Shown here: piece after piece, positions 29,466 through 64,000 of the stretch
How positions within the stretch are numbered: the stretch's first letter is position 1
Layout: each line of letters begins with the position of its first letter
Origin: an uncultured Planctomycetales bacterium
GTDB lineage: Bacteria; Omnitrophota; Gorgyraeia; Zapsychrales; JANLHA01
Length of the DNA stretch: 64,000 nucleotides
NCBI GenBank assembly: GCA_964595465.1
Contig: CAZQQI010000008.1
Span: 16,561-80,560 of the forward strand
Direction: 5' to 3'
The notes under the pieces: generated by a model
What the model was told of the DNA's origin: nothing
Database searches by the model: none
What the model saw: the letters and a program-made list of their open reading frames with translations, nothing else
Made by a program: the position numbers and the translations under genes

Positions 29466-29484
29466 ATCATTCCTCTCTTTCTGA

Positions 29485-30588: not shown

Positions 30589-30740
30589 GATTTTCCCGCG
30601 CAGACAGCAAAATAAAAAGGTGCGATGCTTGCATAATTTTCTCGTCGAGATAAATCTATTTTATAGTATCCCGGCTGCCGGCACAACAAAAAAATTTCAC
30701 CGCTTAATTTGAAAGAATCATTAAAAAGTTAAAAATTTTT

Positions 30741-30768
30741 TTGCATGCCCTTTCCGCTATGTTATGAT
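30741..30768 (+). promoter_or_regulatory. Sigma-70-like promoter upstream of the histone-H1-like gene
   Basis: TTGCAT (30741-46), a 16-nt spacer, then TATGAT (30763-68). Strong RBS AAAGGAGAA before the ATG at 30811. AT-rich context. Confidence 0.45.
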
Positions 30769-30810
30769 TAACGTGTAAACGGCAAAACCACCTTAACAAA
30801 GGAGAACAGG

Positions 30811-31119
30811 ATGGCTGTTAAGAAAAAAGCTGCCAAAAAGAAACCGGCGGCAAAAAAGAAGGTGAAGAAAAAAGCCGTAAAGAAAACCGTGGCCAAGAAG
30901 AAAAAACCGGCAGCAAAAAAGAAGGCCGCCAAGAAAACCGTGAAGAAAAAAACGGCAAAAAAGAAAACGACCAAGAAAAAAGCTGCTGCGAAAAAGCCGG
31001 CCAAGAAAAAGACGGCAAAAAAGGCCGTGAAGAAAAAGGCCGCCAAAAAGAAGCCGGCAGCAAAAAAGACTGCCAAAAAGAAGGCCGCGAAAAAGAAAAC
31101 CGCGAAAAGAAAACGCTAA
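30811..31119 (+). CDS. Lysine/alanine-rich histone H1-like nucleoid protein (Hc1/AlgP-tail-like)
   Basis: 102 aa composed almost entirely of AKKK/PAAKKK repeats. Promoter, RBS and terminator are all present. The mirror minus-strand ORF is an artefact. Confidence 0.7.
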   Translation: MAVKKKAAKKKPAAKKKVKKKAVKKTVAKKKKPAAKKKAAKKTVKKKTAKKKTTKKKAAAKKPAKKKTAKKAVKKKAAKKKPAAKKTAKKKAAKKKTAKRKR

Positions 31120-31140
31120 GCGGAATCCTTTTTCTTGAAA

Positions 31141-31168
31141 CCCTCTGCCGCAAGGCAGAGGGTTTTTG
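31141..31168 (+). terminator. Rho-independent terminator
   Basis: CCCTCTGCC-GCAA-GGCAGAGGG hairpin followed by TTTTTGC. Confidence 0.7.
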
Positions 31169-31204
31169 CTTGCTCCGACCTCTAAATCCCTCTAGAATAG
31201 CGCT

Positions 31205-33541
31205 ATGATCAAACAATTCCTGCGCCATATCGTTATTCCCGCTGTGCTGCTGCTATTGCTCAGCGCGGCCTTTTATGATGTTATCTTCTTCAATAAAACG
31301 TTCAAAGTCACGACAGCAAATTCCCAGGCCCTGCCCACAGGTGTCTACGGCCAGGAAGACAATAAACCGCCCTTTATTCCGGTCAACGGAACAGACTCTC
31401 CGGTTCTGGAAGAGCCGGTCTACGCCTTTCTCAAGCACCATCTTCAACAGGGACGTCTCCCCCTGTGGAACCCTCATCAGGGATGCGGATACCCCCTTAT
31501 CGGCATGCTTCAGGTCGGCATCTTCTTCCCGGTAACAGCGATCATGTATCTTTTCCCCTCTCTTTTCGCCTGGGACATTTTGATCCTGACCCGTTTATTC
31601 TTGAGCGGATTATTTATGTTCGGCATGATGCGCTATTTCCGTTTCCGGCAGATCCCATCATTTGCCGCCGCAGTCATCTTCATGCTCAGCGGCCCCATGG
31701 TTTTACTGCAATACTGGACCACCAACGTGGATATCCTTCTTCCGGTGCTCATCCTGACTCTGGAAAGCCTGCTCCGGCGCACAACATTACGGCGGACAGC
31801 GCTTCTTGCCGGAGTCGTTGCCATGACCATTCTCGCGGGACATCCCGAACATATTCTGCTGGTCAATCTCTACGGACTGCTCTTTTTCCTCTACCGCATC
31901 TTTGCCCTGCGGCGCCCTTTTCTGCGGTCCATGATCCTATACGCAGGGGCCTATCTTGGCGGCATCGGCCTGTCCGCGGCGGCTTTTTTTCCCTTTATCT
32001 ATAATTTCCTATTTCACTTCTGGCATGGACACCCATCCGGAACGGGACTCCTCATGGAAGAACAGCCTGCCCGCGCGATCACCCTGGCCCTGCCGCATTT
32101 TTTCCAAAAGGCTCCGATTACCTATCAATGGGTCTTTGCCGGATGGTGGGGCGGCTACCTGGGCACACTCCCTCTTGGCCTGGCCGTGGCCTCTCTCTGG
32201 AAAAAACAAAAACGGGGGCTCAACATTTTTTTCGCTGTTATGGCGGGCGCTGTTTTAGCGAAGGCTTACGGACTGCCGATCATCAACTGGATCGGCCACA
32301 TCCCGCCTTTTGATCTTCCCCGCTATGCGATCCATTCTCCGCCCCTGGCCGCCTTCAGTGCTGCCGCAGCCGCCGGCATGGGGGTCCGTCTCTGCCAAAA
32401 AAAACCTCCTCTTCAGGGAGCGATCATATTTTCTGCCGGCCTCATGCTCATTACCGCAACCCATTTACTTGTTCTGAAAAACAGCGAACACATCACCCTC
32501 TCACTCAGGGCCGCCGCCTATGCCCTGGCACTGCTTATCATCTGGCTTATCCTGCTGACCCTGCGTAAGCAGAAGATCCTTTCGGCCCGCATAACCGGTT
32601 TGCTTTTATGCGGTTTAGTATTTTTAGAACTCGCTTCCTATATCCACCGGGAACGCCCGGAACGGTTTGATTCCTTCCCGCCGGTCCCCTACATTGAACA
32701 GCTGAAAACCGCGCCTCAGCCCGTCCGGAGTTATGGAAATTTCTGGGCTTTTTATCCCAACACCGCCACCGGATACGGTGTGGACGATCTGGGATATTTT
32801 TTCGGTCTGGTTCCCAAACGGTATGTCCATTTTGTCAACCGCCTGCTCATCCCCGAGCATTTTCAGGCGGATTTCCGCAGTCCGTCTCTGCGGGCGATCC
32901 CGATCCAGAACCGCGAGACAATTCTTAACCTGCTCAACGTAGGTTATATTATCGCACCGTCAGACAACCGTCTGATTTCCCGTTTCCCGCATTTCCGTCC
33001 GCTGGGAGATTATCTGCATCGTGTTTACGATGGCGAGGTGCGGGTCTTTCAGCGTCCGGACGTGTTTCCCCGTGCTTTTGTCACACACCGCGCTGTTTTC
33101 GAACCAAATCCGGAAAGACATCTGGATTATGTCCATGCTCTGCGCAGCCGGTTGCGGAATGTCGCCATTATCCAGGCTCCGCCGGACAAGAAAATTCGAG
33201 ACGCGCTCCAGAATACACCGTCCAGAAACCGCTCAACCGCTTATATCACATTACACACGCCGAACCGGGTTGAGGTTCGCGCCTTTATGGAACATCCGGG
33301 CATGCTCGTCCTGAGCGAAACCTATCATCCTGGGTGGAAAGCCTTAGTCAACGGAGAACCTGCCGAGCTCTATCCGGCGGACTACCTCTTTCGTTCCGTC
33401 TTCCTTCCCGCCGGGACGCATACCGTCGAATTTGTCTTTCAGCCCAAAGACTTTTTTGCGGGGATCGCGGTCAGCTTATTTTCTTTCCTGGTCCTTGCCG
33501 GGATCCTATTCTTCCGCATAAAAAAGCCCTCCGGTCATTAA
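31205..33541 (+). CDS. YfhO-family polytopic membrane protein (putative glycosyltransferase)
   Basis: The LWNPHQGCGYPLIGMLQVGIFFP motif region and ~14 TM segments match the YfhO family (PF09586-like). Confidence 0.6.
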   Translation: MIKQFLRHIVIPAVLLLLLSAAFYDVIFFNKTFKVTTANSQALPTGVYGQEDNKPPFIPVNGTDSPVLEEPVYAFLKHHLQQGRLPLWNPHQGCGYPLIGMLQVGIFFPVTAIMYLFPSLFAWDILILTRLFLSGLFMFGMMRYFRFRQIPSFAAAVIFMLSGPMVLLQYWTTNVDILLPVLILTLESLLRRTTLRRTALLAGVVAMTILAGHPEHILLVNLYGLLFFLYRIFALRRPFLRSMILYAGAYLGGIGLSAAAFFPFIYNFLFHFWHGHPSGTGLLMEEQPARAITLALPHFFQKAPITYQWVFAGWWGGYLGTLPLGLAVASLWKKQKRGLNIFFAVMAGAVLAKAYGLPIINWIGHIPPFDLPRYAIHSPPLAAFSAAAAAGMGVRLCQKKPPLQGAIIFSAGLMLITATHLLVLKNSEHITLSLRAAAYALALLIIWLILLTLRKQKILSARITGLLLCGLVFLELASYIHRERPERFDSFPPVPYIEQLKTAPQPVRSYGNFWAFYPNTATGYGVDDLGYFFGLVPKRYVHFVNRLLIPEHFQADFRSPSLRAIPIQNRETILNLLNVGYIIAPSDNRLISRFPHFRPLGDYLHRVYDGEVRVFQRPDVFPRAFVTHRAVFEPNPERHLDYVHALRSRLRNVAIIQAPPDKKIRDALQNTPSRNRSTAYITLHTPNRVEVRAFMEHPGMLVLSETYHPGWKALVNGEPAELYPADYLFRSVFLPAGTHTVEFVFQPKDFFAGIAVSLFSFLVLAGILFFRIKKPSGH

Positions 33542-33552
33542 ACCGGAGGGCT
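33525..33552. terminator. Bidirectional hairpin terminator shared by convergent genes
   Basis: AGCCCTCCGGT / ACCGGAGGGCT stem flanked by an A-run upstream on the plus strand (a U-run for the minus-strand transcript). The yfhO-like TAA stop lies in the loop. Confidence 0.55.
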
Positions 33553-33582
33553 TGTACGTTTCAATGATAAAAATCCGCTTAT

Positions 33583-33975
33583 TTATTTTTTTGCTGTTTT
33601 TTTCTTAGCCGGCTTCTTTTTGGCGGCCTTCTTTTTTGCAGGAGCCTTCTTTTTCGCCGTCTTTTTGACTGTCTTCTTCGCCGTTTTTTTCGGGGCCGTC
33701 TTCTTTGTCTTCGGCTTAACTTTTTTGGCCTTTTTCACGCTCTCCGCCTTTTTCTTCTTGCCGGCTTCTTTCTTCTTGCGGGCCTGAATACGCTGATATC
33801 TTTCCGGCATATGATATTTCATCCACCCTTCGGCGTAAAGCCGCAGCCACTCATCTGTGGCCCGCTCGATACCTATGCTGTAGCCGGCTTTCTGACTCTC
33901 GATCCATAAATGACGGTTGATCTCTTCGATCACGTCTTTATTTTTTAACAACTCCCGTAAATCCGAAATCTTCAT
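33583..33975 (-). CDS. Protein with a small N-terminal globular domain and a C-terminal histone-H1-like lysine/alanine-rich tail
   Basis: The MKISDLRELLKNKD... domain is followed by KKAKKVKPKTKKTAPKKTAKK repeats. GGAGGG RBS 6 nt upstream of the ATG at 33973-33975. Confidence 0.65.
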   Translation of the reverse strand: MKISDLRELLKNKDVIEEINRHLWIESQKAGYSIGIERATDEWLRLYAEGWMKYHMPERYQRIQARKKKEAGKKKKAESVKKAKKVKPKTKKTAPKKTAKKTVKKTAKKKAPAKKKAAKKKPAKKKTAKK

Positions 33976-34071
33976 AACACCCTCCTCTAAAATGATAACA
34001 TCCTCCGTATTTCTGTTAATCAAAATTATACCGATTCCGGCCGGAAGTCAAAGGATTTTTTTATTTCTCTC

Positions 34072-36204
34072 TTACGCCACCGCACTTTCATGCGCGGAGT
34101 CCCGCAAAAAAACAACAGAACCGGAGGTCAATTCATAGATATTCCGCATTGTACGGATATCCGGTTCCTGCTGCATACCGAAAATATCAATGTCCGCCGG
34201 AGGAGCAGAAACCAGGACGGACCGGAAGTCGCCCGACATCACAACCATTTCGGCATTCTCCGGCAGACGGAATCCTTTCCGGACACGCTCTAAATAATCC
34301 CGAGCCAGAGACTCTTCTGCCTCACTGCTCACAGCCTGCAGAATCCTGATCCGCGCTCCCCAGCTTTTCTGCAGCTGAATAGCGGTCAAAATCGCAAGAT
34401 GAATATTGGGACTGCCTTTACGCATCCAGAGATTAATAGTCTGCTCATATTTAAAACGCTTTTCCAGGTCCAGGGCCAGGACCATCAGACCGAGACCTTC
34501 CGCGATACCGCGCTTTAAAATCTCCCTCAGCATCCCGTCATGGTCAGCGTTATGATCCATCACGCTGAATAATGTGTTGGGAGGCAGAAATAATTGCCGG
34601 GTCAACTGTAAGGATATGGTAACAGCCGCAAGCGGATCTCTTGCCTCCAGGACACTCTGTTCAGCAAAGAGCGCCTCATCCCGGAACGATGTGACGATCG
34701 CGGCCATCTGTTCATGAACGGCTATTCTTTCGGCACCGTCCCGCCGGGGATCTTTACCGAACGGCACGATCTTCAGCAATAACAGCCGGCCGGCCGGAGA
34801 GATGATCTGCCGCAGAAAATGCTCGGCATGTCTCATGTCTTCATCGCGGATCAATGGAAAAATAATATTCGGTTTCCAGACTTTAGGATGGTACGGCAGA
34901 CGGGAGGCGGCTTTAACAAGGGTCTCTGCCAGAAAGATCAGCAGGCCGCTGCGGACATCCGCGGTCCGTGTTTTCATCTCGCCTCTGACAAAGATCATGT
35001 ACAAAACAATGATGCCGGCCAAAGCTATCAATGTGAACCGGGCATCAATAACAAACATGGCGCTGAAACAGCCTACACTGCCGGCCAGGGAAACCCAGCG
35101 GGGGATCCTGAAAGATGGGCGGAAACTGGGGATGCCGATCGACTGCTCGATAAAGACCGACAGATTGATCATCCCGTATGTAATTAAAAAGATTTGCGTG
35201 AGCAGTTTAGCCACTGTGTCTAAAGTGCCGAACAGGAAGGTTGTCAAAACAATGAGCGCCGTTAAAAGAACCGCAGCCGTCGGTTCGGCCCGTCCGTTAA
35301 GACGGGAAAAGACGCCGCCGAAAGGGACCATCCGATTCTCCCCCAGCGCCAGCAATGTCCGCGGGGCACCCACGAACATACTTAAGGCAGAAGAGAGTGT
35401 GGCTCCCATAACTCCGGCCACCACAGCCCAGCGCCAGCGTCCCAATTCAATTAGAAGCGTGTTTTCCGATACCAGATCCGACGAGGAAATATGTGTTCCC
35501 AACCAGACCGCGAGAAAAATATAAACGACTAAAGATACTCCAATAGCGGACAACGTTCCCCGGGGGATGGCCTTGCGCGCGTCCGTCAATTCCCCAGACA
35601 TGCTGGCGCCTGCCAGAACCCCGGTCACGGCCGGAAAAAAGATCGCAAAGGCCACCCAAAATTGTCCCGGCGCTGCGCCGCGCCAACTGGCACCGCCCAT
35701 ATATTCCGGATCCCCGCCCAATGCGATCGATAGCAACGAAAACGCGACCACAGCCATAATGACATACTGAATACGAAAGGCGAACCGCGCACTGAAATAT
35801 GAGATCAGCACAACCCCCAGCCAAACCGCGAGAGATACCATGATCATATCATGCTGGGGAAAGATCCACAGCCAAACTTCACTGAATCCGGTGATATAAA
35901 ACGCGACAGAGATGGCCTGGGAAAGATATAAAGGAATACCAATGGCTCCGCCGGCCTCCACCCCCAGAGATTTGGTAATGATCGAATACGCGCCGCCGGT
36001 GCCGATACGGATATTGGTCACAATGCTGGACATGGAAAGCGCCGTAGCGATCGTGATCGCGTTAGCCAGCAAAATGATAACCAGAGCTGACAGCAGTCCG
36101 ACCTGGCCGACGACCCAGCCCAGGCGTAAATACATAATAACGCCCAGAATACTGAGCAGGGTCGGGGTGAACACCCCTTCAAACATGGAGAAGCGTTTGG
36201 CCAT
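34072..36204 (-). CDS. Cation-chloride cotransporter family (SLC12/amino-acid permease superfamily) membrane transporter
   Basis: 12-TM APC-fold N-terminal domain (GTGGAYSII, FFPAVTG) plus a large cytoplasmic C-terminal domain. Confidence 0.7.
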   Translation of the reverse strand: MAKRFSMFEGVFTPTLLSILGVIMYLRLGWVVGQVGLLSALVIILLANAITIATALSMSSIVTNIRIGTGGAYSIITKSLGVEAGGAIGIPLYLSQAISVAFYITGFSEVWLWIFPQHDMIMVSLAVWLGVVLISYFSARFAFRIQYVIMAVVAFSLLSIALGGDPEYMGGASWRGAAPGQFWVAFAIFFPAVTGVLAGASMSGELTDARKAIPRGTLSAIGVSLVVYIFLAVWLGTHISSSDLVSENTLLIELGRWRWAVVAGVMGATLSSALSMFVGAPRTLLALGENRMVPFGGVFSRLNGRAEPTAAVLLTALIVLTTFLFGTLDTVAKLLTQIFLITYGMINLSVFIEQSIGIPSFRPSFRIPRWVSLAGSVGCFSAMFVIDARFTLIALAGIIVLYMIFVRGEMKTRTADVRSGLLIFLAETLVKAASRLPYHPKVWKPNIIFPLIRDEDMRHAEHFLRQIISPAGRLLLLKIVPFGKDPRRDGAERIAVHEQMAAIVTSFRDEALFAEQSVLEARDPLAAVTISLQLTRQLFLPPNTLFSVMDHNADHDGMLREILKRGIAEGLGLMVLALDLEKRFKYEQTINLWMRKGSPNIHLAILTAIQLQKSWGARIRILQAVSSEAEESLARDYLERVRKGFRLPENAEMVVMSGDFRSVLVSAPPADIDIFGMQQEPDIRTMRNIYELTSGSVVFLRDSAHESAVA

Positions 36205-55372: not shown

Positions 55373-55563
55373 AAATCCTTGCGAGGTAAGTTTATATGTG
55401 TAAATGGATTATATCACTGCGCGGCTCGGCGTGTCAATAAACCCCCCTGCTTTCTCCCGGCGTGCTCTCGGTCTATTTAAAAATATAATAAAATATGGTA
55501 ATATGGGGCATCCCGGAGAAGCGGACAAATCATAAAAAATATATTATCACAAAATCGATATCC

Positions 55564-58137
55564 ATGCCCACAACAGCCCCAACCCCCATGCTCAGACAGT
55601 ACCGGCAGATCAAGGACCGGCACCGCGACTGCATCCTCTTCTTCCGTTTGGGAGATTTCTATGAAATGTTCTATGATGACGCGGCCGTGGCCAGCAAGAT
55701 CCTGGACCTGGTCCTGACCTCCCGCGGAAAGGGTACGGCCAATCAGGTCCCCATGTGCGGCATTCCCTATCATTCCGCAGATAATTATATTGCCAAACTC
55801 ATTAAAGCCGGACAGAAAGTCGCGATCTGCGAACAGGTTGAAGACCCTGCCGCGGCCAAAGGCATCGTCAAACGCGATGTGATCCGCACGATCACCTCGG
55901 GCACCTTCCTGGACGACCATTCCTCGGATGCCCGCTATATCCTCTGCCTGTCTCCGGGCCCCAAAGAAACCGGCCTGGCCTTTATCGATCCGGCAGCCGG
56001 AACAATACAGACCAACGTCTATCATTCCCTCAGCCGCTGTGCCGAAATCCTCGCGCGTCTGCCGGTATGCGAATGCGTCTATCCTTTAAAAGACGAAGAA
56101 GCCGTCAACAAGCTGCGCAACCACCCTCTTCTACGCACCCGCACGATCACCTTCAGTCCGCATGAAGACTGGTGCTTCAGCCGGGATATCGCGCATAAAG
56201 CCTTGTGCGAACACTTTAACCTGCCCAATCTGCGGGGCTTCGGTATTGAAGATCTCGACACAGCCGTCTCCAGCGCCGGGGCCCTGCTGGAATATCTCAA
56301 ACAGATGAACCGCCAGCCCCTGCGCCACATTGACCGGGTCCGTCTGTATTCCGATAACTCCTACGCTTACATCTCACCGGCGGCGGTCTACGGGCTGGAG
56401 CTTAACACCTTATTCCGGACGATCAATCTGACCCGCTCGCCGCTGGGCAAACGCAAACTGCACTACTGGCTGTTTCATCCGCTGAAAGATCCGGGGAAAA
56501 TTCAACAACGCCAGGATGCCGTGACTTTGCTGAAAAACCAGCCCGCCTGCCGGGACCGGCTCAAAGATCTTCTGGGCTCCATGCCGGACGCGGAAAAAAA
56601 TATCTCCAAACTTTCCTGCGGCTATGTCCATGCCAGAGACATCCTGTCCGTACGCAACGCCCTGTGCCTGCTTCCGTCTTTGAGAGAGACCCTGGCTGAC
56701 GCAGCCAAAACACATGTTCTTTTTCAGGTCCCGGACCTTCCGGACCTGCGCACATCTCTGGAACGCGCGGTCAACCCGGATATGCCGTTAAGCAAATACG
56801 AAGGCAAGGTCATCCGGCGGGGATATCATGATGAGCTCGATCAGCTGAGAGATATTCAGGAAAACGGCCGGCAATGGCTGAAAAGTTTTCAGGAACGGGA
56901 GGCCCAGCGCACCGGGATCCATTCGCTCAAGGTCGGATTCAACAAAGTCTTCGGGTATTACATTGAAGTGACCAGGGCCAACCTCGCCTCGGTTCCCGAC
57001 GACTATATCCGCAAACAGACCCTGGTCAACGCCGAACGCTTCATCACCCAGGAACTCAAAGATTATGAAGACAGGATCCTCACGGCTCAGGACAAGATCC
57101 TCAAGATCGAAGATGATCTGATCCGTGATCTGCAGAACCAGATCCTGTCGTTTTCAGCGGATCTGCACAAAGTCTGCAACGCTGTCGCCCGCGTCGACGC
57201 TCTCTACTCACTGGCCGCACTGGCTCTGCGCCCGGGCTATACCGCCCCGCAATTGAACACAGATATGGCCATTGACATCCGCGAAGGACGCCACCCGGTT
57301 GTCGAAGCGGCACTGGACCACGCCTTTGTCCCCAACGATACCTATCTTGACCACAGCAGCGATCATCTGCTGATATTGACCGGGCCGAATATGGCCGGAA
57401 AATCAACCTATATCCGCCAGATCGCTCTCCTGATCATTCTGGCACAAATGGGAAGCTATATCCCGGCCGCAAGCGCCGTCATCGGAACAGTTGATAAGAT
57501 CTTTACCCGTATCGGAGCTCATGACGATATCACCAAAGGGCAGAGCACCTTTATGGTGGAAATGAACGAAATGGCCGATATTCTGAACAATCTCTCCGAG
57601 CGCAGTCTGGTGATCCTGGACGAGATCGGCCGCGGCACCAGCACCTATGACGGGCTCAGCCTGGCCTGGGCCATTGCCGAATATCTCCAGCGCACAAAAA
57701 CCCGCGCCTTGTTCGCCACGCATTTTCATGAACTGACCGCCCTGGCCGACGATTTCCCCGGCGTAAAAAATTACAATGTCGCGGTCAAAGAATGGGAAGA
57801 CGAAGTGATCTTTCTGCACAAGATCATTCCGGGAAGTACTGACGACAGCTACGGGATCTATGTCGCGAAACTGGCCGGGGTCCCTCATGACGTGATCGGC
57901 CGGGCGCGCACCATCCTCGGCCGGCTTGAACTGAAACAGGATATGAAGACGACACTGGCCTCATCACAGGAACTGACCGAACAGCAGATCGAATTCTTTC
58001 AGTCAGCCGCGGACCCGGTCCTGGAAGAACTCCGTCGGGAGATCCGGGAACTCGACCTGAACAGCATGACCCCGATCGAGGCCCTGGCCGCGCTGGACAA
58101 ATTAAAGCGGACGGCGAACCAAAGGCCGAAAACATGA
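55564..58137 (+). CDS. mutS: DNA mismatch repair protein MutS
   Basis: MLRQYRQIK start region, Walker A GPNMAGKST, full MutS domain series. Confidence 0.95.
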   Translation: MPTTAPTPMLRQYRQIKDRHRDCILFFRLGDFYEMFYDDAAVASKILDLVLTSRGKGTANQVPMCGIPYHSADNYIAKLIKAGQKVAICEQVEDPAAAKGIVKRDVIRTITSGTFLDDHSSDARYILCLSPGPKETGLAFIDPAAGTIQTNVYHSLSRCAEILARLPVCECVYPLKDEEAVNKLRNHPLLRTRTITFSPHEDWCFSRDIAHKALCEHFNLPNLRGFGIEDLDTAVSSAGALLEYLKQMNRQPLRHIDRVRLYSDNSYAYISPAAVYGLELNTLFRTINLTRSPLGKRKLHYWLFHPLKDPGKIQQRQDAVTLLKNQPACRDRLKDLLGSMPDAEKNISKLSCGYVHARDILSVRNALCLLPSLRETLADAAKTHVLFQVPDLPDLRTSLERAVNPDMPLSKYEGKVIRRGYHDELDQLRDIQENGRQWLKSFQEREAQRTGIHSLKVGFNKVFGYYIEVTRANLASVPDDYIRKQTLVNAERFITQELKDYEDRILTAQDKILKIEDDLIRDLQNQILSFSADLHKVCNAVARVDALYSLAALALRPGYTAPQLNTDMAIDIREGRHPVVEAALDHAFVPNDTYLDHSSDHLLILTGPNMAGKSTYIRQIALLIILAQMGSYIPAASAVIGTVDKIFTRIGAHDDITKGQSTFMVEMNEMADILNNLSERSLVILDEIGRGTSTYDGLSLAWAIAEYLQRTKTRALFATHFHELTALADDFPGVKNYNVAVKEWEDEVIFLHKIIPGSTDDSYGIYVAKLAGVPHDVIGRARTILGRLELKQDMKTTLASSQELTEQQIEFFQSAADPVLEELRREIRELDLNSMTPIEALAALDKLKRTANQRPKT

Positions 58138-59960
58138 AACACGTCCATATTTTACCTCCGGAAATTATCAGCAAGATCGCTGCCGGCGAGGTCATTGACC
58201 GTCCGGCCTCCGTGATCAAAGAACTCCTGGAAAACTCCCTGGACGCCGGTGCCGGCCGTATTGAGATCGAACTGACCCAGGCCGGAAAGGCTGAAATAAC
58301 GATCCGCGATAACGGCTCAGGGATCCCGCAGGAAGACATGAAAACCATTTTTCACCGGCACGCCACCAGCAAGATCACAAAAGCGGATGACCTTTTCGAC
58401 ATCCATTCCCTCGGGTTCCGCGGGGAGGCGCTCTACAGTATCTGCTCGGTGGCGGATATCGTTCTGCGCAGCAAGACGGCCGGCCAGGACAACGCCTGGG
58501 AGATCCATGTCCGCGGCGGAGACCGCCTGGCCCTCAAACCGGTTCCCGCCAATAACGGCACCGAGATCACGGTCAAAGAACTCTTTTTTAATACCCCCGC
58601 CCGGCGGAAATTTCTGAAAACGAACACCAGCGAAATGAACCGGATCCTGAACACGGTTATCCCGTATTGCCTGCTCTATCCTCAAAAATCCTTTACACTG
58701 ACCCATGGGGAAAAATCCGTGCTGGATCTTCCTCCCGCGGAATCCACAAAACACCGTGCCGCCGCGGTTCTCAATCTGGATCCGAACTGTATGATCAAAG
58801 CTCAAAAGACCCTGCCGGACAAAGGTGTTTCAATACGCGCGGTCCTGGGCGACATTAACATCTCCCGTTCCCGCCGGGACATGCAGTACCTCTTTATTAA
58901 CGGCCGGCCCGTACAGAATAAAAACATCAGCTTTCATATGAACGATGTCTACCGTCTCATCCTGCCGCCGCGTCATTTTCCGTTTTTCTGCCTTTTTATT
59001 GATATGCCCGCCGGCGATCTGGACGTTAATATCCACCCGACCAAACGCGAGGTCAAGATCCGTGACGAACAGACATTGGCCAAACATCTGCGCCGCCTGT
59101 GCGAAGACGCCCTGATGCAGGCCAGCCGTCCCAAGCAGGCAGCATATGAGCCGGCGCAGGAACCCGCGGGAGAACGTCCGTCGGTACGCGAGTGGATCGA
59201 CAAGGCCCTGAAAGACCAGGGGCGCGCCCATGAACAAATCGAAAAAAGTTTCGATGATCTCCCTGTCCCCGGAACGGGTCAGACCCCTTCGGGGGACAGA
59301 GCGCCGCACCAGCGGCCGACCGAGGCGCATACCATCCCGGAATACAGCGCGCCGGAGGAATTTTCCCAGCACCTCTTCAGCCAAAAACAGGACTCCCTGC
59401 GCGAACAGCTCAACGCGGCCCGCTTCAGCGGAATATTCCGCAGCACCTATCTCTTTTTTGAATCCGGCAAGACATTGCTGATCATTGACCAGCATGCGGC
59501 CCAGGAACGGATCATGTTTGAACAGCTCATCGCTCAGATGCGGAGAGGAAAGCTCGAGGTCCAGCGCCTGCTCAGCCCGTATCTGGTCAGCGCGACCGTG
59601 CAGGAAATGACAGTCTGGCAGGAGGCTCAGGAACGATTTTCAGAATTGGGGTTTGAAAGCAGTGCCTTTGATGAAACCACGATCGCGGTGCATACCCATC
59701 CCGCGCTGGTGCAGGAACCGGAGACCGCCTTCCGCGAACTTCTGGCTGAGGGGGATATCGCCCGCTGTGACCATGAGACCCTGGCCCGGCGGGCCTGCCG
59801 TGCCTCGGTGATGGCCGGCGACCGGCTGAACGCTGAGCAGGCGGACTATCAGCGCGAACAGCTTCTGCAGTGCAAAGACCCCTTCACCTGCCCCCACGGC
59901 CGCCCGACCGTGATCGAAATGACAGAAGATTTTCTCCGGAAGCAATTCCTGCGGACTTAA
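58134..59960 (+). CDS. mutL: DNA mismatch repair protein MutL
   Basis: GHKL ATPase N-terminus (IAAGEVIDRPASVIKELLENSLDAGA) and C-terminal dimerisation domain. Confidence 0.95.
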   Translation: MKHVHILPPEIISKIAAGEVIDRPASVIKELLENSLDAGAGRIEIELTQAGKAEITIRDNGSGIPQEDMKTIFHRHATSKITKADDLFDIHSLGFRGEALYSICSVADIVLRSKTAGQDNAWEIHVRGGDRLALKPVPANNGTEITVKELFFNTPARRKFLKTNTSEMNRILNTVIPYCLLYPQKSFTLTHGEKSVLDLPPAESTKHRAAAVLNLDPNCMIKAQKTLPDKGVSIRAVLGDINISRSRRDMQYLFINGRPVQNKNISFHMNDVYRLILPPRHFPFFCLFIDMPAGDLDVNIHPTKREVKIRDEQTLAKHLRRLCEDALMQASRPKQAAYEPAQEPAGERPSVREWIDKALKDQGRAHEQIEKSFDDLPVPGTGQTPSGDRAPHQRPTEAHTIPEYSAPEEFSQHLFSQKQDSLREQLNAARFSGIFRSTYLFFESGKTLLIIDQHAAQERIMFEQLIAQMRRGKLEVQRLLSPYLVSATVQEMTVWQEAQERFSELGFESSAFDETTIAVHTHPALVQEPETAFRELLAEGDIARCDHETLARRACRASVMAGDRLNAEQADYQREQLLQCKDPFTCPHGRPTVIEMTEDFLRKQFLRT

Positions 59961-59996: not shown

Positions 59997-60017
59997 CCCT
60001 CCCCCTTGTGGGGAGGG
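59997..60017. repeat. GC-rich hairpin CCCTCCCC-CTTGT-GGGGAGGG followed by a G-tract repeat (TTAGGGAGGGGGA)
   Basis: 8-bp all-GC stem located 37 nt after the mutL stop. No flanking T-run. Confidence 0.5.
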
Positions 60018-60150: not shown

Positions 60151-60631
60151 TCATACTCGTCTTAATTTCAATGAGTTATGAAATCCGACACCATTTTTTT
60201 CTGGCCACCGCTGTTCTTCTCCGGCATGCACATTTTGCCAGATCCCGCGGTATAAATCATACAAATAATCCGGCTCCTGTCTTAAGCGGAAAGGATCTAT
60301 ACGCACATACGGCTCAAACGGAGAACGGAAAATCATATCAATGCCTTTTATCGAAACCTCACGTATACGCTTTTCAATTTGACACAAATGCTCTTTCAGC
60401 TCTGAAGGATACTCCCGTGGATTTTTAATACGCGTCGCCGGTTCCAATATGACATCCATATCTGATCCCGCGGTCAACGCGCCGATGGAAAAACTACCGC
60501 CAAGATAAATAAAAATACCGTCGCTGTCCTGTAGTACGGAAACAGCCTTCGCGATCTTTTTCTGCTGAGTGTTAAGCAGATCCTTCAGCAGCGGATCATT
60601 GATCGATAGGATCGGTCGCCCCTTGCGGTTC
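60151..60631 (-). CDS. Minimal nucleotidyltransferase (Pol-beta superfamily, MNT-like)
   Basis: GGSFSIGALTAGSDMDVIL = GS...SDxD NTase motif. Probable TTG start overlapping the upstream TGA stop (TTGA) with an AAAGGAGG motif upstream. The start assignment is uncertain. Confidence 0.55.
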
Positions 60632-63600
60632 AACGGCGGCCGTTTAAGCGCCTCCTTTCTACAGCCCGTTGAGCCAGTGCCTGGATCAGCCGGCCGTTGC
60701 ACGTAACAGCCAAACGCGCATCAATATACTGAACAGCCCCGATACGGGCACGGCTGAGTTCTGTGCTGTTTGCAAAAAACGCGACATCACTTTTCCACGC
60801 TAAATCCACGAAATGCTGAAAATGCTTCCGAAACCGCATCTTCCCTTTTTCATCATCATAGACATCCTCAACCTCAGCACCAACAATCACGTCAATGTCC
60901 AGATCAAAGACATCCAGAGACTGATCGTGCTCAGCCTCAAGCATATGCAATTCTGCCGGCACCGGCATACGCAGCAGTCTGTGGTCGTCCGGGTCCTGAT
61001 CCAGACGGTATTTGCGGATATTTTTAATAAGGCCGAGATCAACCAGACCACTAAGATAATTATGACTTTTCAATACGCGGGCCGCCCAACGACGGATCAT
61101 TTGCCAACCATCCAGAGCCGGTCTTTTCACATGGTATCCATAAATATCATTATGAGCGTCCAGATAACCCCAGCGAAGCCCGCCGTCGCGTATGATATCC
61201 GCGATCTTCTCCTGATAATGATCACACAGACACACCGGAACCAGGCCGTGCTGTCCGACCCAATAAACTCTCCGTCCGTCAGCCAGCCGTATCTCAAGGT
61301 AATGTCCCGCTCCTACAGCGTATCCGGTCCGATTGATCCGCACATGACTCACGATCCACTGCTCATTCTGCTCCGGTCGGACATTGATCTCACGCTGGAT
61401 GATATCCGCCTCCGGAAAAATAAAATCCTGCGGTATATGAACATCGATTTTCTGCCCTATATCAGCTGCTGCCCCGGCTTTTTGTGATATCGCGCCGCGT
61501 CTTTCCCCCGCCCCGTCATGGAACGGGACACTGAACACGACCAATACCAGTGCCGCGGCAAGAGCAACACCAATGAGTATCCAAGAATGCGTCACGGCGG
61601 CGGTCATCCCGGCCGGAAGGGCAAAAAGTGCCAACACATTGAACGACACAAAACCGGACGCAGAGGTTTTCCGATTATGCGATCTCTCCGCCGAAGGATT
61701 TACGGCCCCATTTACAGCATCATCTGGCTCACGATCTTCATCCCCGCCTTGATTATCTGTTGCCAAAAAACGAGCCGCTTGCCGTGCAGATATCTTTGTG
61801 ATCCGGGCCCGCACCCGCCGGAACTTCCGTTCCTGTTCCGCTAAAAAAGGCACGGAGCCGTTTGTGCTGATAAGCCGGCCCAGCTCCAGGCGGATATTCT
61901 TTCGATGTTTTTCCGCCGCGTCTACAACTAAGGGTGACGCAACATACTGGTTGCCAAATTGACCGGCTGTCAGATCCATAGCAGCATCTTTGTCTTCAAG
62001 TTTTAAAACCGGATAGACATGCAGGGTTTCTCCGGCGACCACAATATGCTCCCGGAACATTTCCCGATTATAAATGCCGGCATCGATGCCGCTTTGCCGG
62101 GCGGCTCCAAGAAGACAGTCACAAACTGTGAAACAAAGGCCGCATCCCGCAAAAAAAGAACGCGATAATATTGTGTAGTCGCCCCTCCTCCCGTCAATAA
62201 CCGCCAAATATCTTTCAGCATGGTTCAGCTTCCGCAACAGCACCAGAATAAGGTCCTGCTGCTGTTCAAAAATCCGCCGCAAATGTTTCATGGTCCCGGG
62301 CCCTGTGCGAAAATCCTCAAAACAGCCCTGAAACACTTCTGTCAAACGCCGTTCTACTGCGGCCTTCTTGTCCTGGTATCTGTTCCTTATACCTTTTTCA
62401 GAGGAAAACCCTGTATTCTCATTGGCTTGAGAACGCTCCTTTTGGCATATTGTCTTCAAACTTTGCTCGGTTCCCTGGCGGGAAAAGATCGTTTCAAGAC
62501 CCTGATCTTTCAGACCCAAAGTAAGTTGTTGTTTCAAACACGGCCAATCTCCCCACCCCTGCTTGAACATAATATCGGTGCCGTTCTCATAGAGCAGCCG
62601 GATATTTTTGCGCTGTTCGCGGCTTCCTGCCGGCCCTTGAGGCAAGCCGACCATAATCCCGGACAATTCTTTTAAGGCCTCGCCGCCATCGATCCAATCA
62701 TTAAAACTGATGATCCGATGGGCAGGGAACTGATCTTGTAAATAGCGGAAAGCAATATCTTTGCGGTGATCAGTGTCCTGCCCGCTTCCCAAATGGGCAA
62801 CGTCTTCCCGCGTGATCACGCGGTCAGCCGGAACGAGTTCAAGCACGCCGGCCTGCTCCAACTGGCGGAGAATGGCGCTGCGTGACGCGCGTGAATCCGT
62901 CAAAATATAGCTGGGAATATGGAGTGCCGTAACATCCCGCATGGCATCCAGTACACCGGGCATTAATACCGGAACATGTTTCTCGGCAAATTTTCCGCGC
63001 TCCTCCTGCATGACACGGACAAATTGCTGTTCATCAACCCCGCATTCTTTCATCATCGCAGACCAGGATTCTGAGGCATCCAGTTCTGCAAGATGTTCTT
63101 CAACCCACTTCAGGGCATCCTGATTGGAGATTTCCCTAAACGCCTTCAGGACATGCGCAAATTCCTGTTTCCAGGTCGGACGAAAGATCGTGCCGTGGAT
63201 ATCGAACACGGCCAGATAAGCATTTCGCTGAAGGGGATCAGGTGCTAATTCAATCCTGTTGATATTCGGAGGAAATCTATTGGATTTAAAAGGCGGGCCG
63301 CGGGGCTCCGGGACCATTCGAGCGGTCATAACCACAGCAAGGGCCGCGGCAAGAATGACCCAAAGCCAGGCCGGAACAATCACCCCGCCGGCAATGCCGG
63401 TCATAACTGCCAAAGACATGCCGGAAATAAATCCTTGCCGGCGATGATCCCCAAGCTGGCGCGGATGATTTCTCCTGTCCGATTCTCGCTGCCCATCATC
63501 TCTATGTTTTTGTTCCTGCCTGTTTCTATTGCCCCGCAAACAGCAGCATTCTTCTAAAAACCTGCCGGCCGCCAGCAAAGCCCGGATCCGCATAACTTCT

Positions 63601-64000
63601 GCCGAATTCCAAACTTCTGAAAAAGGCTTCCGGCTTAATGGAGATGAAATTTCTGTATTCGGAAGATTAAAGCATGGGATCAAGGCCCCGCAAAAATCAA
63701 TGTTCGCCTCTGTCTCCAGCAGGCAGGGCTTATTCATTTCTGCCGCAAAATCCCAAACATAAAGTCCGATTCCGTATTTTGCGGCTTCTTCATGCATACG
63801 ATCCAGCACGCCATCGCGCAGTGAACGATACGAGACATCAACGCCGTCCAATCGATATCGGTTTTCCAGAAAACGAAGTTCCAAATAACGGGCACCGATC
63901 TGCCGACAAAATTGCGGCATCTCATGAAGCGTTCTCAAATTGTATGCGTTAGCAACCGTGTTGATCCAAACCGGAATGCCGGCTTCTCTGTGAAATATCT
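60630..64000 (-). CDS. Very large multidomain protein, 5'-truncated by the window edge: radical-SAM/SPASM-like Cys-rich region, basic linker, TM pair, HAD-like domain, transglutaminase-like Cys-peptidase core, TM pair, ~300-aa C-terminal domain
   Basis: No stop codon from 60633 to 64000 in this frame, so the listed TTG is not the real start. Cys pattern C-x11-C-x5-C...CCC resembles SPASM. FDIHGTIF...SYILTDS...K...NDWIDGG resembles HAD motifs. GCGLCFTVCDCLLGAARQSGIDAGIY...EHIVVAGE resembles a transglutaminase core. Confidence 0.6.
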   Translation of the reverse strand, partial: IFHREAGIPVWINTVANAYNLRTLHEMPQFCRQIGARYLELRFLENRYRLDGVDVSYRSLRDGVLDRMHEEAAKYGIGLYVWDFAAEMNKPCLLETEANIDFCGALIPCFNLPNTEISSPLSRKPFSEVWNSAEVMRIRALLAAGRFLEECCCLRGNRNRQEQKHRDDGQRESDRRNHPRQLGDHRRQGFISGMSLAVMTGIAGGVIVPAWLWVILAAALAVVMTARMVPEPRGPPFKSNRFPPNINRIELAPDPLQRNAYLAVFDIHGTIFRPTWKQEFAHVLKAFREISNQDALKWVEEHLAELDASESWSAMMKECGVDEQQFVRVMQEERGKFAEKHVPVLMPGVLDAMRDVTALHIPSYILTDSRASRSAILRQLEQAGVLELVPADRVITREDVAHLGSGQDTDHRKDIAFRYLQDQFPAHRIISFNDWIDGGEALKELSGIMVGLPQGPAGSREQRKNIRLLYENGTDIMFKQGWGDWPCLKQQLTLGLKDQGLETIFSRQGTEQSLKTICQKERSQANENTGFSSEKGIRNRYQDKKAAVERRLTEVFQGCFEDFRTGPGTMKHLRRIFEQQQDLILVLLRKLNHAERYLAVIDGRRGDYTILSRSFFAGCGLCFTVCDCLLGAARQSGIDAGIYNREMFREHIVVAGETLHVYPVLKLEDKDAAMDLTAGQFGNQYVASPLVVDAAEKHRKNIRLELGRLISTNGSVPFLAEQERKFRRVRARITKISARQAARFLATDNQGGDEDREPDDAVNGAVNPSAERSHNRKTSASGFVSFNVLALFALPAGMTAAVTHSWILIGVALAAALVLVVFSVPFHDGAGERRGAISQKAGAAADIGQKIDVHIPQDFIFPEADIIQREINVRPEQNEQWIVSHVRINRTGYAVGAGHYLEIRLADGRRVYWVGQHGLVPVCLCDHYQEKIADIIRDGGLRWGYLDAHNDIYGYHVKRPALDGWQMIRRWAARVLKSHNYLSGLVDLGLIKNIRKYRLDQDPDDHRLLRMPVPAELHMLEAEHDQSLDVFDLDIDVIVGAEVEDVYDDEKGKMRFRKHFQHFVDLAWKSDVAFFANSTELSRARIGAVQYIDARLAVTCNGRLIQALAQRAVERRRLNGRR

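Follow-up and report, generated by a model that had tools for sequence, protein, structure and literature searches.

Features of the locus

The window, i.e. the whole stretch of DNA analysed (64,000 nucleotides), ends in a long minus-strand gene that is followed by a small nucleotidyltransferase gene and a convergent mutL. The features are listed below, residue numbers being those of the annotated protein P0001.

60630..63998, minus strand: long ORF (residues 148-1269 plus TGA), continuing past the window and the contig
63744..63998, minus strand: C-terminal part of a radical SAM core (residues 148-232; PF04055, E=8.6e-13 for the full protein)
63540..63725, minus strand: twitch-like auxiliary-cluster Cys motif, C239-x10-C250-G251-x4-C256 ... 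C298-C299-C300 (from sequence)
63435..63539, minus strand: basic low-complexity linker entering hairpin 1 (residues 301-335; from sequence)
63306..63434, minus strand: predicted TM hairpin module T1 (residues 336-378; hydropathy, flank charges)
62505..63224, minus strand: module A, HAD superfamily, subfamily-IA-like (residues 406-645; profile against PDB)
61809..62399, minus strand: module B, a rare domain (residues 681-877; C766-G-x-C769, H807 and D822 invariant)
61518..61655, minus strand: predicted TM hairpin module T2 (residues 929-974; hydropathy, alignment of copies, flank charges)
60657..61460, minus strand: module C, arginase fold, peptide-arginase-like (residues 994-1261; profile, AF2, Foldseek)
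60630..60633, minus strand: TTGA overlap of the long-ORF TGA with the nucleotidyltransferase TTG start
60151..60633, minus strand: minimal pol-beta-type nucleotidyltransferase P0090, 160 aa (G-G-S ... D-M-D; PF01909)
59997..60017, no strand: inverted repeat rich in G+C (CCCTCCCC n5 GGGGAGGG), located where the nucleotidyltransferase and mutL genes converge

Extent of the open frame

A first-pass annotation of the sequence had described a single minus-strand frame running off the window, and this is borne out. The frame comprises 1,122 codons plus TGA with no stop up to the window end (log10 P(no stop) about -17.9, based on the window's own minus-strand stop-triplet frequency of 0.036). Codon-usage log-odds, trained on the remaining long ORFs of the window, were positive over nearly its entire length, whereas the other frames scored negative. 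P0001 is annotated as a 1,269-aa 'MAG: radical SAM protein' of Candidatus Omnitrophota (MFP4472997, GCA_046542295.1); since its frame stays open to the contig end as well, the TTG given in the annotation may not be the true start. Moreover, an independent Logan assembly from run SRR11308339 (L003, 2,919 bp) matches window positions 62924-60006 with 100% identity; it spans the nucleotidyltransferase and P0001 residues 506-1269, and thereby the last 2.3 kb of the long frame. The lost stop or frameshift that had been considered as splitting the chain is thus absent over 62924-60006, this second assembly ending short of the junction between radical SAM module, linker and hairpin 1 (about 63300-63550).

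In the upstream direction, another protein, P0058, ends in 18 residues (AFAATPRDGPREFLDPED) that are encoded without a mismatch by the opening 54 nt of the P0001 contig, read in frame with P0001. P0058 (1,645 aa, 'partial') occupies the whole of a 4,938-bp contig, and its accession (MFP4473889) falls in one block with those of P0001 and the nucleotidyltransferase (MFP4472996). Besides a methyltransferase and a URO-D domain, it has the hairpin modules seen in P0001. The exit motif of these modules (TPRDGPR) is also recognisable in the residues 5' of the annotated TTG. As judged by the 18-residue identity and the accession proximity, P0058 is probably the upstream part of the same gene, which would encode at least 2,909 aa, with the window ORF in its last ~1,280 residues. 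Since the break adjoins a repeated module, the true upstream neighbour could be another hairpin copy. The radical SAM segment had been taken as the head of the protein, whereas the ORF runs upstream into at least 1,640 further residues.

With regard to the 3' end, the proposed stop-start overlap is confirmed (TGA at 60632-60630, TTG at 60633-60631), and the NCBI calls agree on these 4 nt. An AGGAGG precedes the TTG by 17 nt, and the nucleotidyltransferase gene appears to be translationally coupled to the long gene. The nucleotidyltransferase assignment of P0090 also stands (PF01909, 24.5 bits against a cutoff of 21), and the protein shares with minimal nucleotidyltransferases (MNT/MntA) the G-S ... 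D-x-D motif and a size of ~160 aa. It differs from them in having no HEPN partner, in scoring 12.9 against 60 bits with the MntA model and in having no detectable close homologues: the word-index search returned only P0090 itself, and no relatives were found in the PDB. The inverted repeat at 59997-60017 may represent a terminator hairpin; it has no T tract and was not scored as an intrinsic terminator.

Radical SAM module and TM hairpins

Full-length P0001 matches PF04055 with 49.2 bits (cutoff 29.5), in agreement with the initial radical SAM assignment, and it does contain the CxxxCxxC motif (C22/C26/C29), 478 nt outside the window. The core also gave generic SPASM, twitch and MoaA-type NCBIfam matches, each far under its cutoff. 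The Cys cluster had been assigned to the SPASM/twitch type. It contains the first half of the SPASM motif (C239-x11-G251-x4-C256) followed by C298-C300; the full-SPASM block CX2CX5CX3C is absent from 63540-63725, for which Pfam SPASM gave only E=0.44 and N_Twi_rSAM E=0.0068. P0001 thus resembles SPASM/twitch enzymes (MoaA, PqqE, AhbD/NirJ and the TIGR04317 tungsten-cofactor maturase) in its CxxxCxxC motif, its TIM-barrel core and a CX11GX4C half-motif with distal Cys residues that could hold one auxiliary cluster. Unlike these enzymes, it scores far under every curated cutoff (best 68.5 against 380 bits), and its radical SAM part is an internal module between TM hairpins.

Two pairs of TM helices had been proposed, and hydropathy indeed shows two blocks, each about 41-44 residues long. 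T1 is a 41-residue hydrophobic block that turns at a central GGVIVP and is bordered by basic residues on either side, while T2 consists of 20 hydrophobic residues, THS and 21 more, with a basic linker ahead of the block. The two share a short DNA repeat. The linker plus hairpin 1 aligns with the second P0001 copy and with four copies in P0058, making six copies over the two proteins, with basic or neutral flanks on both sides. We infer the hairpin topology from hydropathy and flank charge.

Modules A, B and C

The HAD assignment of the D413-I-H415-G-T417 segment is well supported, as the family profile of module A matched PDB structures of the beta-PGM, TM1254 and BT2127 type over the whole domain (E 1e-8 to 1e-6, about 1e-8 for beta-phosphoglucomutase-type structures). 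The single P0001 domain falls under the Pfam thresholds (16.1 against 26.4 bits). The match to HAD subfamily IA (beta-phosphoglucomutase, BT2127 pyrophosphatase, TM1254 sugar phosphatase) spans core and cap, and the family keeps the nucleophile Asp, the motif I Gly-Thr and the motif IV Asp (D581). It departs from that subfamily in that at least 90% of members have His as the Asp+2 general acid/base, and in a conserved C-terminal extension (PQG...NR...G.D...GW).

Module B is possibly a papain/transglutaminase-like thiol enzyme. The part of the original transglutaminase-like assignment that holds is the invariance of Cys766, Cys769, His807 and Asp822, among three sequences only; a Pfam match is absent and the fold match is non-significant. 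Like transglutaminase/papain-like enzymes, which are its top Foldseek hits, the module has a Cys at a helix N-terminus, with His and Asp on the beta strands that come next. The best matches were the Cys-His-Asp deamidase toxins PMT-C3 and SseI, but with E at least 0.045 and TM below 0.3, and PF01841 was not matched. In addition, CGxC is reminiscent of the active sites of thioredoxin-fold proteins (3feu, E=1).

Module C corresponds to the ~300-aa C-terminal domain that had been left unclassified. The family indeed has no model in Pfam or NCBIfam, but an arginase fold is recognisable: the profile matched OspR in the PDB (8brp, E=2.2e-4), and the AF2 model (pLDDT 91) retrieved OspR and then arginases as top Foldseek matches. 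Like the peptide arginases (pfam12640; OspR PDB 8BRP, FlmR, OhkR), module C has the arginase alpha/beta/alpha fold, and its family shows their motif flavour (H-N...AF, DxHxD, LDIDxD). All six Mn ligands of OspR (H12/D39/H41/D43/D165/D167) align with H1064, D1094, H1096, D1098, D1179 and D1181, the predicted binuclear-metal ligands of module C. In contrast to the peptide arginases, which are encoded in RiPP gene clusters, module C sits inside long multi-enzyme proteins, shares ~10% identity with them and has an additional N-terminal beta subdomain of ~65 residues. The P0001 copy has H-G and VCL where the rest of the family has H-N and AFF.

Recurrence of the modules in other proteins

An exhaustive HMMER search over 1.84 billion representatives gave 82 hits with one module each, mostly within proteins of 1,000-7,900 aa; module A was matched by 56 proteins and module C by 24, and A and C were combined in none of the 82. 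All 13 hit proteins with an organism name are from Omnitrophota (two named only via a cluster member). According to source names and Pfam content, the partners of the modules include NAD synthase, PPAT, NUDIX, methyltransferases, a PEP-utilising domain and PGM/PMM; further partners are a PLP enzyme, GNAT, EAL, URO-D and a radical SAM domain with two copies of module A. A fusion of radical SAM with module A occurs in an unrelated protein (P0003/P0085). At 12 GTDB loci, module C lies in open frames of 598 to >6,500 aa, and no radical SAM domain, module A, module B or nucleotidyltransferase was found within 10 kb of it (0/12). The idea of a coherent radical SAM-led maturation machine in a two-gene operon is not sustained by this pattern, as A, B and C recur singly in other long Omnitrophota proteins with unrelated partners.

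Interpretation of the long protein

The window probably contains the 3' third to half of a very long Omnitrophota gene for a multi-enzyme, membrane-anchored long protein. Its product would be a chain of unrelated, independently folding enzyme domains punctuated by the repeated module of basic linker and TM hairpin. The reconstructed order would be hairpin, a region of unknown nature, hairpin, methyltransferase, TM segment, URO-D, hairpin, a second such region, hairpin, radical SAM (twitch-type), T1, HAD (A), Cys/His/Asp (B), T2 and arginase-like (C), the separate nucleotidyltransferase gene coming after the end of module C. The modules would act as separate catalysts rather than in a single pathway, an independence that we infer because they shuffle among long proteins. 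The radical SAM module would perform radical chemistry with one auxiliary Fe-S cluster, module A phosphoryl transfer via Asp413 (with His415 in place of the usual Asp+2 acid/base), module B an action via its Cys-His-Asp triad, and module C hydrolysis of a guanidino group at a binuclear Mn-type centre, as in arginases and peptide arginases.

The domain combination had been regarded as undescribed, yet passages of two preprints already report this kind of protein for Omnitrophota as 'multi-enzyme metabolic clusters', TM-only class (bioRxiv 10.64898/2026.06.07.730766) and 'Archaeovorins' and their relatives (bioRxiv 10.1101/2023.11.21.568195). We consider it likely that the present protein belongs to this published class and is not a dedicated radical SAM maturation machine. 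As described in those passages, Omnitrophota long proteins are mostly TM-anchored multi-enzyme mosaics, in which many unrelated and highly divergent enzyme Pfams are tiled on one chain with TM helices every few hundred residues, and assemblies break within their genes. Their typical domains include HAD, methyltransferase and radical SAM, all three of which are found here too. The preprints catalogue sizes of >10,000 and >30,000 aa (2023) and of at least 10,000 aa with higher tiers (2026), whereas ~2.9 kaa are known here, and this part contains none of the SecA-DEAD, HEAT, glycosyl-transferase or dockerin content noted there. Membrane-tethered strings of enzymes are thus already known from Omnitrophota, and the protein adds a previously unannotated arginase-like domain. 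The searched passages of the two preprints make no mention of a repeated hairpin module conserved in sequence, of an arginase-like module or of a D-x-H HAD family.

Alternative explanations

An unlikely alternative, in line with the first-pass annotation, is a dedicated membrane-associated machine for peptide or protein maturation, in which the radical SAM/twitch, thiol and peptide-arginase-like modules act sequentially on one ribosomal substrate, with the HAD domain and the nucleotidyltransferase in accessory roles. The SPASM/twitch branch is rich in peptide maturases, and the closest relative of module C, by both profile and fold, is OspR, a RiPP (ribosomal peptide natural product) maturase. 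OspD is a radical SAM epimerase. It is encoded in the OspR gene cluster too (PMC10028609). The module C motifs (Q-H-N...AFF, DAHxD, DLDID) are also nearer to those of peptide arginases (EEH(N/H)EAF, DXHXD, LDIDLDYFSC) than to the classical GGDHS and SXDXDXXDP (PMC12703449, PMC10028609), although PF12640 was matched by none of 18 module C members. Small precursor peptides, for which a search of the neighbourhood had been suggested, are not visible, only the nucleotidyltransferase and the convergent mutL lying downstream, and upstream the same ORF carries methyltransferase and URO-D. Elsewhere the modules are unlinked, the partners of module C being metabolic enzymes, and one free-standing module C gene adjoins a glutamate-type dehydrogenase gene. 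Peptide maturation does use these enzyme classes (radical SAM, thiol and peptide-arginase-like), which counts against module independence.

Even less probable is a polyprotein or effector array, i.e. a precursor cut into enzymes, for instance by module B, or modules that would enter host or prey cells in the manner of multi-effector toxins. The weak resemblance of module B to deamidase toxins would fit this, as would reports, in passages of the 2023 preprint (10.1101/2023.11.21.568195), of host-dependent or predatory Omnitrophota and of proposed cleavage of giant proteins by peptidase domains. Moreover, the signal peptide of P0078, the one free-standing module B homologue, suggests that this domain is located outside the cytoplasm and counts against the multi-enzyme mosaic that we favour. 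However, those fold matches are non-significant, the radical SAM, SAM-dependent methyltransferase and URO-D domains require cytoplasmic cofactors, the known part has neither a secretion or translocation domain nor a signal peptide, and a cleavage motif was not identified.

Finally, an assembly or sequencing artefact is very improbable, in which a lost stop, frameshift or chimeric join, above all at the radical SAM/linker junction, would have merged separate genes: the source is a metagenome-assembled genome, the gene lies at a contig end beside repeats and that junction is outside the second assembly, but the coding signal runs throughout the single frame, the second assembler yields an identical last 2.9 kb, the adjoining mutS and mutL are intact, radical SAM and module A are also fused in P0003/P0085, such fusions are the norm in Omnitrophota according to the preprint passages, and the basic linker and hairpin after the radical SAM module are homologous to five further in-frame copies.

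A single reading frame and its continuation upstream

On the minus strand, positions 60630-63998 of the window form one open frame of 1,122 codons that ends in TGA and reaches the window edge uninterrupted. From the window's own stop-triplet frequency, a stop-free run of this length has a log10 probability of about -17.9, and codon-usage log-odds trained on the window's other long ORFs were positive nearly throughout this frame and negative in the other frames, dipping at the linkers only. The TGA (60632-60630) overlaps the TTG (60633-60631) of a 160-aa ORF ending at 60151. The last 764 codons and this stop-start overlap are reproducible, since a separate Logan assembly of run SRR11308339 has a contig of 2,919 bp that matches window 62924-60006 without a difference. 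The single long minus-strand frame described in the first-pass annotation is confirmed by the open frame, the coding signal and, over 62924-60006, the second assembly, and the overlap proposed there with a nucleotidyltransferase gene holds both in the sequence and in the NCBI annotation, where both genes are likewise annotated as overlapping by 4 nt. The longer product, P0001, is annotated as a 1,269-aa 'radical SAM protein' on JBKHBP010000009.1 (69,965 bp) of GCA_046542295.1, a Candidatus Omnitrophota MAG. When the 1,122-aa window product was the query, a word-index homologue search returned the self-match only, a PHROGs search gave no match, and neither did single-sequence phmmer of P0001 residues 341-1269 against the PDB. 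A promoter and terminator scan around the 3' end produced nothing above shuffled expectation.

Only 39 nt separate the annotated TTG of P0001 from the contig end, and these contain no in-frame stop. The 13 residues upstream of the TTG match the hairpin exit motif TPRDGPR (see below), which takes the protein at least as far as a further hairpin, independently of any contig join. A candidate for the missing part is P0058 (MFP4473889.1), a 1,645-aa 'uroporphyrinogen decarboxylase family protein, partial' that fills a 4,938-bp contig. Read in the P0001 frame, the opening 54 nt of the P0001 contig encode exactly the peptide with which P0058 ends, ...AFAATPRDGPREFLDPED, and this peptide occurs only once in P0058. 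An overlap of 54-56 nt is what would be expected between neighbouring contigs from a k=55 de Bruijn assembly. The accessions of P0001 (MFP4472997.1) and of the nucleotidyltransferase (MFP4472996.1) lie 892 before that of P0058, which is consistent with one genome submission. On this sequence evidence we strongly infer, short of demonstration, that P0058 joins P0001 in one ORF of at least 2,909 aa that is still open at its 5' end. Two of the P0058 hairpin copies are nearly identical, which probably explains the assembly break there; an exact DNA search for the contig end in GTDB genomes and JGI metagenomes found no extension.

Segments of P0058 and of P0001 (window minus strand), in residues of each protein
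P0058 1-57, 519-590, 1273-1352 and 1569-1639: four linker-hairpin copies
P0058 642-779: methyltransferase
P0058 958-1270: URO-D domain (E=3e-39)
P0001 301-377: hairpin T1, basic linker (301-335) and 41-residue hydrophobic block (337-377), from hydropathy
P0001 406-645: module A, HAD-like; 56 relatives by exhaustive HMMER
P0001 681-877: module B, Cys/His/Asp segment; two relatives only, P0065 ('GNAT', 1,081 aa) and P0078 (310 aa)
P0001 about 903-974: hairpin T2, linker and block of 20 + THS + 21 residues, from hydropathy
P0001 994-1261: module C, arginase-like; 24 relatives by exhaustive HMMER

P0001 residue numbers equal the index in the window translation plus 147. P0058 also adds two unassigned stretches, and the joined 2,909 aa hold at least six distinct enzyme-type domains together with six hairpins.

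The radical SAM domain

The CxxxCxxC motif that was to be sought beyond the window end is present as C22-x3-C26-x2-C29 of P0001, on the same contig but beyond the window. Residues 16-162 score 49.2 bits with PF04055 (cutoff 29.5), and motif and profile together place P0001, as a predicted enzyme, in the radical SAM superfamily. The best curated families are generic SPASM, twitch and MoaA-type models, all far under their cutoffs, and phmmer against the PDB gave weak generic matches only. The earlier reading of a SPASM/twitch-type Cys cluster stands in part. A SPASM domain was defined by the seven-Cys motif CX9-15GX4C - CX2CX5CX3C - C together with a PF13186 match. P0001 has the first half of this motif (C239-x11-G251-x4-C256) and a distal CCC at 298-300, the CX2CX5CX3C block is absent, and PF13186 scores 11.3 against 21.5 bits; a full SPASM-domain enzyme was therefore rejected. 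These features fit a twitch-like enzyme with a single auxiliary cluster, the N_Twi_rSAM model scoring only 45.3 against 170 bits. A viperin-type defence function, to be recognised by a family-level pVip model match and the C-terminal extension of viperins, was likewise rejected: PADLOC returned only generic matches of the radical SAM core to pVip (E=1e-10), NF038283 scored 32 bits against 180 over the same core, and other radical SAM families outscore the viperin models.

In the joined ORF the URO-D domain (uroporphyrinogen decarboxylase / MtaA-like) lies about 370 residues upstream of the twitch-type radical SAM domain, the weak matches of which include the haem and d1-haem enzymes AhbD, AhbC and NirJ. 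A tetrapyrrole link between the two is possible and is offered as a lead only.

Repeated linker-hairpin modules

The two linker-hairpin units of P0001, T1 and T2, align with each other, and in a within-protein comparison these modules were the only parts that resembled each other, by which an internal duplication of the enzyme domains was rejected. Together with the copies in P0058, at least six copies of this sequence-conserved module would lie in one gene. Both sides of each hydrophobic block carry net basic or neutral flanks, charges that fit a topology in which both ends of each hairpin lie on the cytoplasmic side of the membrane. The module probably serves to anchor the enzymes and probably also causes short-read assemblies to break, and we consider it worth carrying forward. 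Within the second helices, a 24-nt direct repeat, 79% identical, is found at window 61540-61563 (T2) and 63331-63354 (T1), a DNA-level trace of the repeated hairpin.

Module A, a HAD domain with an altered motif I

Residues 341-1269 of P0001 were compared with 1.84 billion representatives in an exhaustive HMMER search, which gave 82 matches besides P0001, each to one segment only; P0058 is one of them, and in it the hairpin module alone was matched, several times. In the alignment of module A (A2, 25 sequences), D413, G416 and W423 are invariant and H415, F579 and D581 occur in at least 90%. Membership of the HAD superfamily was judged by a Rossmannoid core, motif I DxDx(T/V), motif II S/T, motif III K/R, an acidic motif IV and HMM or profile similarity. 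Against the PDB, the module A profile matched HADs of the beta-phosphoglucomutase, TM1254 and BT2127 type over the whole domain (E 1.4e-8 to 1e-6), with the best HAD-IA match at E=1.4e-8 over 224 positions. P0001 alone scores under the Pfam HAD threshold, and its relatives P0003 (47.4 bits) and P0008 (37.4 bits) score above theirs. Judged by the family profile and the scores of the relatives, module A is assigned to the HAD superfamily as a predicted domain. Its motif I reads DxHxT, with the nucleophile retained and His in place of Asp+2. From the conservation in A2 and the profile matches, the FDIHGT noticed at first pass is a real HAD motif I, in which His at Asp+2 is a family trait, and the HAD-like segment proposed on that basis is upheld. 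This HAD family, with His systematically in place of the catalytic Asp+2, is in our opinion worth carrying forward. In the JGI metagenome proteins P0085/P0003, an unrelated radical SAM domain is combined with two tandem D-x-H HAD modules and an NAD-dependent epimerase, indicating that fusion of radical SAM with module A recurs independently.

Module B, a Cys-His-Asp segment

In module B, C766-G-x-C769, H807 and D822 are invariant, in three sequences only. The AlphaFold2 model built from these three sequences is moderate (pLDDT 77.6) and places the Cys at a helix start, followed by strands with His and Asp, a topology compatible with a transglutaminase/papain-like core. Pfam gave no match for the segment, PF01841 included, the fold matches had non-significant scores, and an alignment search returned only P0078; a transglutaminase/papain-like module B is no more than plausible. 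A thioredoxin-like reading of the CGxC is conceivable but unsupported, with one match at E=1 behind it. P0078 (JGI, 310 aa) is the sole free-standing homologue, and its residues 19-45, after an internal Met, read MKKLITIIIAATFTLNSTGLPSAALA followed by KP, a Sec-type signal peptide, which suggests that module B may act outside the cytoplasm in that protein. This location is at odds with the cytoplasmic placement proposed for module B of P0001.

Module C, an arginase-fold domain

The C-terminal domain of about 300 aa, left unclassified at first pass, can now be given a fold. Pfam and NCBIfam provided no family model for any of 18 module C sequences. Their alignment (A1) has 16 invariant columns, including H1064, D1094-x-H1096-x-D1098 and D1179-x-D1181-x-D1183, with D1181 in at least 90%. 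The A1 profile found one significant sequence in the PDB, the peptide arginase OspR (8BRP, E=2.2e-4), aligning DAHxD with D39-E-H41-S-D43 and DLDID with L-D165-I-D167-I-D. The Mn ligands of OspR are D39, H41, D43, D165 and D167 together with H12 (PMC10028609), and the six metal-ligand positions aligned to them are invariant or nearly so in the 18 sequences. The AlphaFold2 model from A1 had pLDDT 91 and pTM 0.91, and Foldseek against the PDB ranked OspR first, followed by plant, bacterial and trypanosome arginases, guanidinopropionase and formiminoglutamase. Ranks 1-12 were all arginase-fold with probability of at least 0.97 and TM of only 0.37-0.44, the TM values being low partly because of an extra N-terminal beta subdomain. 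Foldseek and the ligand alignment thus assign module C, as modelled, to the ureohydrolase (arginase) fold.

Peptide arginases convert Arg to Orn within a peptide, with urea release, and carry the motifs EEH(N/H)EAF, DXHXD and LDIDLDYFSC (PMC12703449). The module C motifs GGQHN..AFF, DAHxD and DLDID are closer to these than to the classical ones. The counterparts in module C (GGQHNLSYAFF, DAHxD, DLDIDxxVG) are analogous, not identical, and PF12640 gave no match at E<=1 in any of the 18 members, by which membership of pfam12640 was rejected. We treat module C as arginase-fold and peptide-arginase-like, a putative sister family to pfam12640. The family is unannotated, with an intact metal site and a confident model, is small enough to express and assay, and is likewise worth carrying forward. 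In Omnitrophota MAG contig JBDRPX010000034.1 (L005:6373-11473), a free-standing TM plus module C protein (P0002 locus) is encoded by a gene overlapping the 3' end of a 1,128-aa Glu/Leu/Phe/Val dehydrogenase gene; as a lead only, this neighbour hints that the family may serve amino-acid or nitrogen metabolism. Among GTDB species representatives, several with module C in very long ORFs (L008-L011, L013 and L014) have records titled 'uncultured Planctomycetia/Planctomycetales bacterium' or 'uncultured bacterium', so that either module C reaches beyond Omnitrophota within the PVC group or the bins are loosely named.

A probable piece of a membrane-tethered enzyme string

Relatives of modules A and C occur mostly inside proteins of 1,000 to 7,895 aa with interspersed hydrophobic blocks, and all 13 that carry an organism name are from Omnitrophota, the name in two cases coming from a cluster member alone. 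According to source names and Pfam, the partners comprise NAD synthase, pantetheine-phosphate adenylyltransferase, NUDIX, several methyltransferases, a PEP-utilising domain, PGM/PMM with a PLP enzyme, EAL, GNAT and signal peptidase II, and one further set combines radical SAM, two module A copies and an NAD-epimerase. Among the 82 matches, modules A and C were found together in no protein other than P0001. The open frames that contain module C in 12 species-representative genomes range in length from 598 to over 6,500 aa, and within 10 kb of module C neither the radical SAM domain, module A, module B, the hairpin nor the nucleotidyltransferase of the P0001 locus was found; this lack of linkage argues that the modules are shuffled independently.

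Long proteins of Omnitrophota are described as mostly TM-bearing, with a dominant 'TM-only, cytoplasmic-domain' class and a 'multi-enzyme metabolic' class, and with HAD, methyltransferase, GNAT and radical SAM among the commonest Pfams, in one preprint (10.64898/2026.06.07.730766), and as having numerous TM regions and very divergent domains in another (10.1101/2023.11.21.568195). The joined protein agrees with multi-enzyme membrane-anchored proteins of this phylum in origin, enzyme domains and TM helices; its N-terminus, and hence its signal-peptide status, lies beyond the known part. The catalogued lengths, in tiers of at least 10,000 aa (10.64898/2026.06.07.730766) or above 10,000 and 30,000 aa (10.1101/2023.11.21.568195), compare with at least 2,909 aa known for the P0001-P0058 gene, the ORF of which runs off the P0058 contig at its 5' end. 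Term searches found no 'arginase' in the text of either preprint and no 'hairpin' in that of one of them.

P0001 is, in our view, probably part of a series of independent cytoplasmic enzymes strung together and tethered to the membrane. The hairpins would pin each enzyme block to the inner face of the membrane; each module retains its catalytic residues and, presumably, its generic chemistry. Most of the domain calls in the first-pass annotation proved accurate. The suggestion that the domain combination represents a new membrane maturation system was not supported: with shuffled modules and an upstream continuation, it looks like a truncated piece of an Omnitrophota enzyme-string protein. The puzzle of the odd combination is largely resolved by such mosaic strings, seemingly an Omnitrophota hallmark, and 'orphan' multi-domain proteins at Omnitrophota contig ends may likewise be pieces of much longer genes.

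A dedicated peptide or protein maturation line is an unlikely reading of the locus; the kinship of module C to arginases of RiPPs (ribosomal peptide natural products) and of the radical SAM domain to maturases speaks for it, whereas a precursor gene and conserved linkage of the modules are lacking. Also unlikely is the bolder proposal that module C is a putative lineage of protein- or peptide-directed arginases built into Omnitrophota membrane-tethered enzyme strings, which together with the twitch-type radical SAM domain and the Cys-His-Asp module would modify proteins post-translationally at the membrane; the substrates might be the giant proteins or proteins of a host or prey. If true, it would mean a non-RiPP use of Arg-to-Orn chemistry, and such arrays would be assembled with the linker-hairpin module as a true 'punctuation' unit. 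A polyprotein or effector array is less probable still, weak toxin matches of module B and the signal peptide of P0078 being all that points to it. An assembly or frameshift artefact, for which the rSAM/hairpin-1 junction without independent coverage would leave room, is very improbable: the frame carries coding signal, a second assembly agrees over the last 764 codons, the hairpin modules are homologous and in frame, and fusions of this kind are prevalent.

The nucleotidyltransferase and its surroundings

The 160-aa product of the overlapping gene matches PF01909 with 24.5 bits (cutoff 21) and has the GGS...DMD signature, by which it is predicted to be an MNT/MntA-type nucleotidyltransferase, as had been read from the sequence. 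A word-index search returned its self-match only, and phmmer found no relative in the PDB. An MNT-HEPN toxin-antitoxin pair was rejected: the MntA model NF047752 scores 12.9 against 60 bits, and no HEPN gene adjoins, the 187 nt downstream being intergenic and followed by convergent mutL. This gap holds a perfect 8-bp G+C-rich inverted repeat at window 59997-60017 (CCCTCCCC n5 GGGGAGGG), which the terminator scan left unscored because it has no T tract. The mutS (880-aa ORF) and mutL (608 aa) genes occupy window 55495-59960 on the plus strand, adjoin with a 4-nt overlap (58134-58137) and converge as a pair on the nucleotidyltransferase gene. Elsewhere in the window, at 28001-36000, the AT skew is +0.20, +0.11, -0.22 and +0.17 in adjacent 2-kb windows, swings that probably follow the strand switches of long genes at 27429-36204.
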